The notes under the pieces were generated by a model. That model worked only from the letters and a program-made list of their open reading frames with translations. It did not search any database and had not been told where the DNA came from. A program made the position numbers and the translations under genes. A stretch of DNA of 64,000 nucleotides from Eledone cirrhosa (taxonomy: Eukaryota). The stretch lies in contig OZ024755.1 of assembly GCA_964016885.1 (NCBI GenBank), positions 2,852,001-2,916,000 of the forward strand, given 5' to 3'. Below, in pieces: positions 22,594-31,199 of this stretch; within the stretch, counting starts at the first letter, position 1, and every line of letters begins with the position of its first letter.

Positions 22594-23272
22594 CATTATG
22601 AAGAGAGAAGAAACATTTAGATATAATTAGTAATAAAATGTATCATACCTAAACTGCTTCTAAATTCCTCGACTACGTAGTTTCGTGGCATAAACAAAAA
22701 CAATATATCATAAAGATATAGAGTCCTTGCGAGGTCTGCCGACTTATCAAGAGGATACCTCATTTTACTAGTCTCAAGAACGCGTCTACACGACGTGAGA
22801 AAGAATCCCAAAAGGCGGAGGGGGAGATAGTCACGCGATATAACGGTCGAGAAACAGAGCTAAGCCTCTTATAACCCCGAAGAAAATACCACGGAGGCGG
22901 AGGGGGTATTTATATCGAGGCCGTAGAAGAGGTGGTGAAGGAGGCGAGAAGTATGAGTAATGGAAGCTTTCCAGCTGTCCCCACACTTCAAAGATTGCTC
23001 GACCAGAGGGAGTTATTAACAATATATTTAGAAACACACAGATACATGCGGACACACACATATATACATGAATGCATCCGCACCCACTCTCTTCATAATG
23101 TATTTTTAACTCTGATACTGGTTCAGTCTAGTTCAACTGAATTGGTCTGTCCCAGTCATTCATTGAGCAACATCGGTGAAGTTGGCACCCTTAACTCACA
23201 GTTGGGTGCGGATGCATTCATGTATATATGTGTGTGTCCGCATGTATCTGTGTGTTTCTAAATATATTGTTA
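22594..23272. mobile_element. Family D retrozyme-like / non-autonomous Penelope-like element, copy 1
   Basis: Minus segment 22594-23086 joined to plus segment 23087-23272; near-identical to 30313-31171; (TA)n flanks. Confidence 0.85.
22666..22755 (-). ncRNA. Type I hammerhead ribozyme, U3-A8 variant (family D)
   Basis: TCCTC-TTGATAA-GT(C)GGCA..TGCCAC-GAAAC-TACGTA-GTC|GAGGA. Confidence 0.75.
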
Positions 23273-23479
23273 TATATATATATATAATTATATATATATA
23301 ATTATATAATTATATATATATATATATATAATTATATTGTGTTGTTTTTGGTTATTATATATATATATAAACACAGGAAGCAAAATTACAGTTATACTAG
23401 GTTCACGCTTGGAGGAAGTGGAGGAGGGTTCAACGTTTCTAACAGAAGTCCTTCTTCGGATAGGTTCGACAGGTACTTT

Positions 23480-23613
23480 TGTTTATCGATTCACGTAAGG
23501 ATGAAAGGCAAAGTTAACCCCGGCGGGATTTGAACACAGACCGTAAAGGGCCGTAACTCTATCCTGTGAAGCATGGTGTCTGACGCTCCACCGATACTGC
23601 CAAACTACCACCC
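23480..23613 (-). mobile_element. SINE S1, 3' end missing
   Basis: Consensus match. Confidence 0.85.
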
Positions 23614-23632
23614 TTAATAATAATAATTATTA

Positions 23633-23810
23633 TTATTTCTACATTTGGCACAAGGCCAGCAATTATCCCAGTGCATTACTGGTAGTTTATTTTATCGACC
23701 CAGTAAGGATGAAAGGCAAAGTTAATCTCAGCGGGATTTGAACTCAGAATATAAAGGGCCATAACTCTATGCTGCAAAGCATGGTGTCTGACGCTCTACC
23801 GATACTGCCA
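23633..23810 (-). mobile_element. SINE S1
   Basis: Consensus match. Confidence 0.9.
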
Positions 23811-24460
23811 AATAATAATGACATATTAAATTTTGGCTCCAAGCCAGACCGTTTGGTGAGAGAGGACAATCTATCAATACGACCTCAAAGCAAAACAGTG
23901 CTACTTATTAATAACAAATATATCTGAGACATAAAGGAAGATATCTTTGAAACATGATTAAAACAACAATGAAAGGGAAGATGACAGCAGAAATATAAAC
24001 AATTACTATGACAAGATTAACATCAGTCGTTGATACAACAATAAAACAGCAACAAAAGAAAAAAGAAATAATTTTCAGAAAGATTCAATGAAGGAAACTA
24101 CCATTGTACCATCAATCAAAACTATGAGAATCTGTAGAAATGAATTCGAATTTTCTACGCTAAATAGGAAAACCATAGTTTCAATTGTTGTTCAACATTT
24201 CAACACTAGTTTTGGTTAAGAAATGGTGATTAAAGACTATTGGGAAGATGTGTGGCCTAATAAATAGAGTGTTGAGCACACGAGTGTAAAACTGTGGGTT
24301 CCATTCCTGAACTGTGGAACACATTTTCTTCCAGAAACATTTTGTCATGTCCTGTCTTTTATAGAGTTACTTACTAGTTGCTTATATGTCCATTCTTAAG
24401 AGGATCTCAATTATATATATAGATATATATAAGTAGTAACACAACAGTTAGATCACCATA

Positions 24461-24501
24461 CCGAGAACAATTGTTTCACCTTATGCGGATCTTCAGCTCG
24501 G
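24461..24501 (-). ncRNA. Minimal type I hammerhead within an ~80-bp insert in (TA)n
   Basis: CCGAG-CTGAAGA-TCCgcataaGGT-GAAAC-AATT-GTT|CTCGG; 5-bp stem I, palindromic loop III. Confidence 0.7.
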
Positions 24502-24520
24502 ACTGGTAATCATATATATA

Positions 24521-24778
24521 TATAAGGAAAAGAAATCAAAAATGCAACTGGACTTTTTTTAAGAATATTTTCTTTTCTTTATCGGTTTCACAGTTCTTAT
24601 GCTTTTCAAAAGTATAATTGAGATGGAGGGTTTGTGGTTTGTCTCCCATGAAACCGGTAAAGGAAATATATAAACACTCTTAAAAAGACTCCAGCTACAT
24701 TTTCGATTCATTTTGCTTATACTTTCACCCGTGTAGGTCATCGCGCTTTTTTATTAAAAAAAACAACTCATTTTCTTA
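24521..24778. mobile_element. Family B inverted insert, copy 2
   Basis: Same two outer ends as 6160-6478 but a different inversion point (~24648); GAAACCGGTA|AAG. Confidence 0.85.
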
Positions 24779-25442
24779 TATATATATATAGGAGTCCTGG
24801 GTTCAGTGGGGGGCAACCACAGTAAATAAGGCAATCATTACATTAATCGCGTGTAAACATATTTAATATAGAAATGGCTTTTACAAGACTAGAACTGTTT
24901 CATATAAAAAGAATGTCTTTCCTGAAGATTTTTTTCTCCAGACAACTTATTATGATAATGATGCAGATGATGTTGATTACAATGTTGCTAATGATTATAA
25001 AGATGATGATAATGATGATGATGAGTCTACGAAAGAGAAAGGGGAGGAGATTATACTAGAACAGATGTAATGAACATTGAGCTAAGAAGATAAGGAAGGA
25101 AAGCAACATGAAGTAATAAAAAATAGAGAGAATTGTGTGACCATATATTTGATGATTTGACAGTGATGACTGCTGGAGAAGGTAAATGGCAATAGGTGAG
25201 ATGACAAGACAGAAAAAACACTGAGTGGTGAGGTAGGTGAATGTAAGAATATGAGAATAGAAAAGAGAGGAGGAGGTGTTGATGATAGATTGAAAACGTC
25301 AGGCGGAGATTAGATGTTAAAATTAACAAGTCAAAGATCTGAGGTTTCATTATTTTTTTTCTATTTAATTGAAAACATAATTAAATATCGCACACCGCTG
25401 TACGCATGTATATATATATATATATATATATAGTAATAATAC

Positions 25443-25623
25443 TTGTTTCTACTTTTGGCACAAGGCCAGCAATTACCCAGTACATTACTGGTACTTTATT
25501 TTATCGACGCCGTAAGGATGAAAGGCAAAGTTAACCTCGGCGGGATTTGAACTCAGAATGGAAAGGCCCGTAACTATGCGTCAAAGCATGACGTCCGACC
25601 CTCTACCGATACTGCCAACCCAC
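25443..25623 (-). mobile_element. SINE S1
   Basis: Consensus match. Confidence 0.9.
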
Positions 25624-29707: not shown

Positions 29708-30055
29708 CAGAGGTTCTCAAACGTCTCGGGTCACCGTGTCCCTCAGGGCCTCGTAATACCCTCAGACCGCCATCCCACCCCACCATCAACCTTATTTCTA
29801 GAGATACCTGCCTACAAGCAAATAAATTGTAAATAATATATAATAAATAAAATTGTTAATTGATATATAATAAATAATATAATATATATTATGTATAAAT
29901 AAATATATATTGTTCGTTTTACTATATTTAAATATAGATGTATTATTTGATATTTAGTATACTATTATATCATCCCTACCACCGACCTTTCCAGTGCCCC
30001 CTTCAGCTTTTCAATGCCCCTCAAGGGGTGGCAGCGCCCATTTTGGGTGTCTCTG
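29708..30055. mobile_element. hAT/Charlie-like MITE remnant
   Basis: Ends cagaggttctcaaac and ttttgggtgtctctg, AT-rich interior; no matching TSD. Confidence 0.5.
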
Positions 30056-30279
30056 ATGTAAAGTTTCATATTGCCCCAACATTTATAAAAAAAAAAAGAC
30101 AGCAAAATGTTTTAATACACAGAATATTAAAACGTTGTATTCCTGAAAGGATAGGCAGGGTACATGGACCTAGAAATGACAAAACTGTATATATGTATAA
30201 GTTCCTGTATGTCAGCGTGTGTATATATATGTATATAAATATATATGTGTGTGTTTATATATGTATGCCTTTATGTATG

Positions 30280-30317
<38 letters not shown>

Positions 30318-30547
30318 GAAACACACAGATACATGCGGACACACACATATATACATGAATGCATCCGCACCCAACTGTGAGTTAAGGGTGCCAACTTCAC
30401 CGATGTTGCTCAATGAATGACTGGGACAGACCAATTCAGTTGAACTAGACTGAACCAGTATCAGAGTTAAAAATACATTATGAAGAGAGAAGAAAAATTT
30501 AGATATAATTAGTAATAAAATGTATCATACCTAAACTGCTCCTAAAT

Positions 30548-30637
30548 TCCTCGACTACGTAGTTTCGTGGCATAAACAAAAACAATATATCATAAAGACA
30601 TAGAGTCCTTGCGAGGTCTGCCGACTTATCAAGAGGA
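30548..30637 (-). ncRNA. Type I hammerhead, U3-A8 (family D)
   Basis: Reverse complement of 31008-31097. Confidence 0.75.
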
Positions 30638-30848
30638 TACCTCATTTTACTAGTCTCAAGAACGCGTCTACACGACGTGAGAAAGAATCCCAAAAGGCGG
30701 AGGGGGAGATAGTCACGCGATATAACGGTCGAGAAACAGAGCTAAGCCTCTTATAACCCCGAAGAAAATACCACGGAGGCGGAGGGGGTTGGAAAGCTTC
30801 CATTACTCATACTTCTCGCCTTCTTCACCACCTCTTCTGCGGCCTCGA

Positions 30849-30856
30849 TATAAATA
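30849..30856 (+). promoter_or_regulatory. TATA-box-like motif upstream of the family D HHR
   Basis: TATAAATA in a GC-rich context ~150 nt 5' of the ribozyme; also present in copy 1. Confidence 0.35.
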
Positions 30857-31007
30857 CCCCCTCCGCCTCCGTGGTATTTTCTTCGGGGTTATAAGAGGCT
30901 TAGCTCTGTTTCTCGACCGGTATATCGCGTGACTATCTCCCCCTCCGCCTTTTGGGATTCTTTCTCACGTCGTGTAGACGCGTTCTTGAGACTAGTAAAA
31001 TGAGGTA

Positions 31008-31097
31008 TCCTCTTGATAAGTCGGCAGACCTCGCAAGGACTCTATGTCTTTATGATATATTGTTTTTGTTTATGCCACGAAACTACGTAGTCGAGGA
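31008..31097 (+). ncRNA. Type I hammerhead, U3-A8 (family D)
   Basis: Stem I TCCTC/GAGGA, core TTGATAA 31013-31019, long stem II, GAAAC 31079-31083, loop TACGTA, GTC cleavage triplet 31090-31092. Confidence 0.78.
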
Positions 31098-31199
31098 ATT
31101 TAGGAGCAGTTTAGGTATGATACATTTTATTACTAATTATATCTAAATGTTTCTTCTCTCTTCATAATGTATATATATATATATATATATCTGTAATGT

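Follow-up and report, generated by a model that had tools for sequence, protein, structure and literature searches.

Two near-identical inserts in a stretch of Eledone cirrhosa DNA of 64,000 nucleotides (nt) (assembly GCA_964016885.1, contig OZ024755.1, positions 2,852,001 to 2,916,000; the whole stretch is hereafter called the window) were found to be built from a 595-nt unit that carries a predicted hammerhead ribozyme and closes on itself. By their sequence-level features the inserts can be classed as animal retrozymes without long terminal repeats (non-LTR retrozymes), for which cleavage and a circular RNA are predicted only. Each insert has two outer ends that fall at the same pair of positions in the unit. 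The account we prefer, and hold with about as much doubt as belief, is that a borrowed Penelope-type reverse transcriptase (RT)/endonuclease copied a circular RNA monomer of the 595-nt retrozyme onto both ends of a DNA break.

Two-armed inserts with paired outer ends

Arms were resolved by self-BLAST and base-by-base comparison of both inserts, and unit coordinates were counted from the first base 3′ of the predicted ribozyme cut (+1). An earlier note on this DNA had reported two near-identical inserts with permuted block order. The inserts are real (overlap identity 98.5 to 100%) and so is the permutation, although that note under-used their most informative feature, a two-armed layout with paired ends. 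Each insert consists of two head-to-head arms in opposite orientation, inside (TA)n. In insert 1, the long arm (22594..23086, minus strand) covers −416 to +77 and the short arm (23087..23272, plus) covers +64 to +247/249, the 3′ end of each running into (TA)n. Insert 2 comprises a long arm (30309..30789, minus; −237 to +238/244) that extends past the first end point as well as the cut site, and a short arm (30790..31172, plus; −303 to +77/80), in which 317 nt repeat the long arm in inverted orientation and 66 nt have no counterpart there. The block found after the ribozyme region in insert 2 (30373 to 30309, minus) stands before it in insert 1 (23086 to 23017, minus), and the 102-nt segment missing from the long arm of insert 1 is present in its short arm. 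The unit size, estimated earlier at ~595 nt, computes to exactly 595 (42% GC), with four pieces closing into one cycle and every one of the five cycle junctions contiguous in at least one arm within the window. In both inserts both arms hold sequence without a counterpart in the partner arm, and both central junctions are blunt, with no microhomology (2 of 2).

All four outer ends lie in (TA)n tracts identified from sequence and assigned no strand (22575..22593 to the left of insert 1 and, interrupted, 23271..23337 to its right; 30286..30314 to the left of insert 2 and 31170..31190 to its right). Unit and (TA)n overlap there by 2 to 7 nt, owing to which the outer-end coordinates, read as the last non-TA bases, are uncertain by 3 to 7 nt. 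No target-site duplication was discernible within (TA)n at either insert. In both inserts, one outer end was located at +77 to +80 from the predicted cut and the other at +238 to +249, a distance of ~158 to 172 nt (about 165), and each was 9 to 20 nt behind a predicted hairpin. The hairpin before the first shared end (31102..31154, plus; 15 to 18 nt before it) scored z = −3.1 against mononucleotide shuffles, and that before the second (23197..23252, plus; 9 to 20 nt before it) scored z = −5.7.

The same end points were found in contigs from sequencing runs (7 contig runs out of 24 runs matching the unit sequence). Among the rows listed, further contigs terminate in (TA)n at both sites: at least six and at least two of run X2 at the first (30473/30474), and at least four of run X1 at the second (23022). 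Summed depth approximately doubles across the first site, from 243,646 to 479,785 in adjacent bins. Of the six joints listed for X1, five are again head-to-head but placed at different inner positions, with one contig for each (depth 7 to 19; short side 25 to 28 nt). In at least two of the loose-end rows listed, (TA)n adjoins an arm on its 5′ side, at a TA-like site within the unit.

Within insert 2 the arms show 2 differences over 317 sites, and the 70-nt overlap of insert 1 shows none; between inserts, arms differ at 5 of ~380, 3 of 317 and 0 of ~180 sites. The repeat family is young and its insertions are recent. The inserts (22591-23272 and 30309-31172, 7 kb apart) also have in common alleles that are minor in X1 and X2 (e.g., 22877/30759), and as both carry such alleles, both evidently come from one 595-nt subfamily. 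Both arms of insert 2 carry an allele (30599/31046) that is missing from insert 1 and is not listed at 5% in X1.

The hammerhead motif and the closed unit

A type I hammerhead motif is located at 31008..31097 (plus; core at 31013), and again in the opposite arm of insert 2 (30548..30637, minus; C17 at 30553) and in insert 1 (22666..22755, minus; C17 at 22671). The single type I hammerhead described earlier holds for the unit, which has one and none on the opposite strand, but the window has three, two of them in insert 2. The motif was recovered with all three stems in all three arms covering the ribozyme region, which is motif-level evidence, and none of 3000 dinucleotide shuffles matched the descriptor on either strand. 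The same descriptor found no antisense-strand ribozyme on the 595-nt unit. The hammerhead combines a 5-bp stem I, the core UUGAUAA, G10.1-C11.1, a bulged stem II with a 46-nt arm cap, GAAA, and a stem III of 3 bp set in a perfect 10-nt palindrome, followed by GUC; the predicted cut falls between GUC and GAGGA (31092/31093, and at 30553 and 22671 on the minus strand). Its core is the U3-A8 variant, in which U3 paired with A8 replaces C3-G8, and with its palindromic stem III the hammerhead resembles the type known from Penelope-like elements (PLEs). Sub-threshold Rfam matches (20 and 13) were only weak, miRNA-type hairpins, with no hammerhead and no twister among them, and the exact 23-nt ribozyme pattern had no matches in metagenome, prokaryote and viral contigs.

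Folding predictions gave a monomer of the minimal motif a probability of 0.02 to 0.03 of adopting the active fold, whereas for two minimal motifs a double-hammerhead fold was the lowest-energy state (−58.8 versus −48.8 kcal/mol). These predictions agree with a hammerhead that may be a dimer-dependent or regulated enzyme. The sense circle was predicted at −180.4 kcal/mol with 61% of bases paired (z = −6.5), compared to z = −1.0 for the antisense (40 shuffles each). In a diverged contig of run X6, all five substitutions listed for the hairpin region behind the ribozyme were unpaired or pair-keeping, and a 1-nt deletion fell in the stem.

In agreement with the claim that the unit holds no retroelement open reading frame (ORF), the longest ATG ORF round the 595-nt circle was 76 codons on the sense strand and 46 on the antisense, and the longest stop-to-stop frame was 87 codons; four insert frames had no Pfam match. 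The TATA-like motif reported earlier was located as well (TATAAATA at 22914-22907, minus), a putative element placed from sequence at −244 to −237 (22907..22914, minus; also 30849-30856, plus). As in metazoan non-LTR retrozymes, GC content is low (0.42) and there is no LTR layout: self-BLAST of the inserts found no direct terminal repeats, while a primer-binding site and polypurine tract were not searched for. Three other classes were considered and rejected. An autonomous PLE would need an RT/GIY-YIG ORF, and there is none, the cycle closing without an ORF; a plant LTR retrozyme, which has a type III hammerhead in direct LTRs and a 4-bp target duplication, is at odds with the type I topology, the inverted arms and the lack of a discernible duplication; and a tRNA-derived short interspersed element (SINE), with its tRNA-like head of A and B boxes, found no counterpart in ARAGORN (0 genes) or in a B-box match on either strand.

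Head-to-tail adjacency of units is given by the junctions and by closed contigs, with no full two-unit array seen. Closed cyclic contigs were present in two of the three contig runs compared with insert 1 (X4 and X5, from two studies). These contigs of 621 and 620 nt are self-closing with ~30 nt overlap, giving units of 591 and 590 nt, and the two joints that close the cycle are present in each (22591/22608 to 23104/23087, and 23017/23019 to 23268/23266); relative to the window they show small indels and ~2% substitutions, both runs being of low depth. Runs X10 and X13 gave only partial cover of the unit. It follows from X4 and X5 that the junction near 23017 is not confined to this locus, recurring as it does in contigs of two other studies. 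Copies do not usually run on into an ORF, the share continuing into unlike sequence being given as 0 in X1 and X2 (1624 and 1424 contigs, respectively); on both counts the earlier note stands. Contigs with a single junction had depths of 6 to 19, compared to 5 × 10^4 to 6 × 10^5 at single positions, which suggests that the unit exists in thousands of copies, if not more, a figure good only to an order of magnitude because summed depth is not copy number.

Near-identical sequence was also found in runs under 17 organism labels from 16 studies, at depths of 2 to 23 in the low-depth runs examined. Matches under other organism labels could be carry-over or could reflect a wider distribution, and were not treated as horizontal transfer. 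Two features of run X6 are recorded here in their own right. Relative to 30498-30516, it shows four changes (depth 4.94 of 140) that seem to belong to a single contig. Each is A-to-G when read on the sense strand; three fall within the stem of the hairpin that follows the ribozyme, and none is listed in X2. The cluster looks like A-to-I editing or retroposed edited RNA, in a run of unrecorded kind from another sample. Across 30531-30590, two X6 contigs match the 3′ half of the ribozyme region and then continue from +22 into at least 255 unlike letters; depth rises 3- to 5-fold there, and their loose sense consensus (agreement 0.63) holds a short open frame and an ATG, which hints weakly at an autonomous partner or a sister family.

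Template, enzyme and alternative origins

Because each arm has sequence that its partner lacks, the arms were templated separately, neither being a fold-back copy of the other, and we infer that priming happened twice, once on each DNA end, at two positions inside the unit. A single template fits insert 2, since both of its arms carry the allele missing from insert 1. With three of the four arms running across the cut, a cleaved linear monomer is excluded as template, barring a jump of the enzyme between ends, and three arms start at or upstream of the TATA-like motif, which excludes a sub-unit transcript from it. Insert 1 spans 665 unit nt, more than one unit. The circular or multimeric template proposed earlier is thus needed by the arm geometry (cut crossing and the 665-nt span). 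In the mechanism we propose, head-to-tail copies would be transcribed, paired ribozymes would excise monomers, and a host ligase would circularise them. The enzyme would cut both (TA)n strands and start reverse transcription on each DNA end at +77 to +80 or +238 to +249, each behind a hairpin, and the two cDNAs would stop at variable points before being joined head to head.

The choice of enzyme rests on published PLEs, whose insertions are described in PMC8557442 as partial tandems with an adjoining inverted 5′-truncated copy and a 30- to 40-bp tail at one end. According to PMC11167929, the purified protein of PAc, a Penelope/Poseidon element of Anolis, cleaves AT-rich DNA in both strands, extends each of them, and initiates reverse transcription inside its RNA at two sites, the interval between them being the tail; from positions given in that source we calculated a start ~85 to 92 nt behind the ribozyme cut. 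The inserts have an inverted 5′-truncated arm (2 of 2) and an AT-rich/microsatellite target. By this analogy, the paired-end layout is the published Penelope footprint except for its offset of about 165 nt compared to 30 to 40.

That offset is the first of several points that weigh against a Penelope enzyme acting on a circle: an asymmetric extension is present in both inserts, but at ~158 to 172 nt it is no 30- to 40-bp tail, and the end offset is 4 to 5 times the published one. The loose ends considered are 8 of 81 and 17 of 97 rows, so further end points may exist, and X1 and X2 are one sample that may be the window's own source. A cyclic contig represents head-to-tail adjacency, not an RNA circle, and would arise equally from tandem DNA; among the matching runs listed there was no RNA run holding the unit, the contigs being of unrecorded kind. 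No match to an RT or GIY-YIG partner was found in 100 window frames scanned with Pfam (99 of the 125 complexity-filtered frames and one further frame), which yielded only a weak C2H2 finger and a sub-threshold domain of unknown function. Rfam returned no hammerhead, with 0 matches at the gathering score across the window. With natural flanks, the active fold of the monomer was predicted to be blocked by 4.9 to 8.5 kcal/mol in four of six stretches, and that of a dimer of the longer flanked stretch by 11.6 kcal/mol. Transcription, cleavage and the circle are themselves predicted steps. For PAc, ribozyme mutants had no effect on insertion and uncut RNA was the main substrate, as reported in PMC11167929, and only one of nine Xenopus retrozyme dimers is described as cleaving in vitro.

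These last results bear directly on the strongest alternative, which we regard as possible though clearly the lesser candidate: the same element and Penelope enzyme, with an uncleaved linear read-through of at least two tandem units as template and a ribozyme that is weak, protein-dependent or incidental. Such a multimer explains the crossing of the cut and a span of 665 nt no less well than a circle, and is preferred on the PAc result and the Xenopus dimers; it also agrees with the predicted block of the active fold in context and with PMC11167929, in which uncut RNA is the main substrate of purified PAc and no RNA-seq reads are described as ending at the PAc cut. An incidental ribozyme, however, is hard to square with an intact motif, a paired core variant and a dimer-competent palindrome, or an uncleaved template with a circular monomer that is strongly structured on the sense strand only. 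A circle is preferred by analogy with coral, mussel and axolotl retrozymes, which accumulate as circles (PMC7229834); the animal retrozymes tested are, by the same source, mainly or largely circles.

A change of enzyme is improbable. Twin priming yields inverted arms with outward 3′ ends, so that an enzyme of the long interspersed nuclear element (LINE) type could give this layout, with ends set by short complementarity to the TA target. Both ends do overlap (TA)n by 2 to 7 nt, and LINE-like fragments were noted by eye elsewhere in the window, with no Pfam match. Yet the unit has no poly(A) or repeat tail of its own, longer TA-like stretches within it went unused as 3′ ends in both inserts, the arms overlap by up to 317 nt, and the ribozyme architecture fits PLE descriptions. 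That fit, together with a layout as in PLE termini, would also suit inserts that are 5′-truncated terminal repeats of an autonomous PLE, with the cycle a by-product of a partial tandem, as would the two X6 contigs that continue from the ribozyme region into at least 255 unlike letters. This reading is already disfavoured and a shade less probable than twin priming: all cycle junctions are contiguous, which leaves no room for an ORF; closed 590/591-nt contigs occur in two studies, the share into unlike sequence is 0 in X1 and X2, and the longest ATG ORF is 76 codons. Least probable of all is that the inserts are an artefact of assembly or amplification, or a DNA satellite that fold-back or recombination has rearranged. 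Artefacts often take the form of palindromes, and the window has several more, but the arms are unequal, each with sequence its partner lacks, and there are 2 differences in 317 sites between those of insert 2. Both inserts (2 of 2) also have paired ends, which reappear in other contigs, and X1 has similar junctions at other positions.

If a Penelope enzyme did copy a circular monomer, a bolder reading may be ventured, though only tentatively: that the element is an actively spreading circular RNA parasite, on which a Penelope enzyme dimer starts at two hairpin-marked sites ~165 nt apart, one per DNA end, with the tail set by RNA structure and not by a fixed 30- to 40-nt spacing, and that A-to-I edited circles could be rewritten into the genome. 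A tail of about 165 nt would mean that the distance between the two start sites can vary. The value of the inserts is mechanistic: their paired, defined ends give exact predicted start points of reverse transcription, making the link between retrozymes and PLEs testable.

Neighbouring sequences and known systems

Beside insert 1, also in (TA)n, lies a separate 200-nt palindrome (22328-22575; 99% identity between arms) with a 48-nt extension on one arm. It has the same two-armed, one-tailed anatomy as the inserts, with a tail near the typical length, and each arm opens with a short palindrome and then GTC, which may represent a truncated ribozyme. A direct repeat of ~35 to 40 nt with a 6-nt indel (22240-22273 and 23334-23373) brackets insert 1 and this palindrome, and is possibly a long target duplication or a pair of related element ends. 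Flanking the cluster around insert 1, 23415-23460 (minus) and 22165-22200 look by eye like fragments of decayed minimal PLE hammerheads. Further away, the long palindromes 36978-37213 and 39745-39995 have CTGATGA...GAAA on both arms in a loose scan, with weak, AT-rich stems. An older SINE-like repeat of ~190 nt (75 to 93% alike) occupies at least nine places in the window (4327-4520, 6944-7355, 9381-9550, 23469-23811, 25426-25623, 27801-28220, 54418-54604, 58398-58575 and 60393-60593). Frames at 16948-17097, 37900-38187, 42241-42555 and 56609-56824 resemble LINE-type 3′ fragments by eye, with no Pfam match, and 53367-53594 (minus) gave a single weak C2H2 zinc-finger match under the Pfam cut-off.

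The kind of element, its core variant and its size range are all published. The earlier suggestion that the unit is longer than known metazoan retrozymes holds against the 170 to 400 nt given in PMC7229834, but 595 nt is inside the 51 to 972 bp of bioRxiv 10.64898/2026.07.22.740005. In the literature searched there was no retrozyme with two-armed, paired-end insertions or a ~165-nt tail, though supplements and repeat databases may hold cases, and no title concerned such an element in octopus or other cephalopods, most subscription papers and repeat databases being outside the search. In the accounts available, movement of retrozymes by PLEs is supported by co-occurrence and terminal homology, and its mechanism is called open.

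Among the systems described in these sources, metazoan non-LTR retrozymes are the nearest in kind. They too have a non-coding unit with one type I hammerhead, GC below 50% and no LTR layout, a predicted self-paired circle, and a PLE proposed as helper. The inserts differ from them in a PLE-like U3-A8 ribozyme with a stem I of 5 bp and a long arm on stem II, in contrast to the canonical compact form. Folding also predicts that the circle blocks the ribozyme of the unit, which is the case for some mussel circles but not for most. That ribozyme finds closer counterparts among PLEs. In Schistosoma, PMC4209133 describes U3-A8 cores (Cercyon) and opposite-strand ribozyme pairs 100 to 700 bp apart, and gives a short helix I, a bulged helix II, a palindromic helix III and low in vitro activity as traits of PLE hammerheads. 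The unit is like the Cercyon hammerheads of Schistosoma mansoni in its U3-A8 core, and like those of Cercyon and Drosophila virilis Penelope in its short helix I, bulged helix II, G10.1-C11.1, dimer-suited palindromic helix III and opposite-strand pairs a few hundred bases apart. With PAc and canonical PLEs the inserts have in common an AT-rich/microsatellite target and an inverted 5′-truncated arm, and with PAc two internal starts behind the ribozyme at a similar distance from cut to first end (85 to 92 nt compared to +77 to +80); the unit differs from both in being a closed non-coding cycle with no RT/GIY-YIG ORF and ends ~165 nt apart versus 30 to 40. The non-autonomous Chlamys elements (MRC1) offer a further parallel as ORF-less PLE dependants with multicopy head-to-tail insertions, although that clade belongs to green algae and is described as being without canonical hammerheads (PMC8557442).

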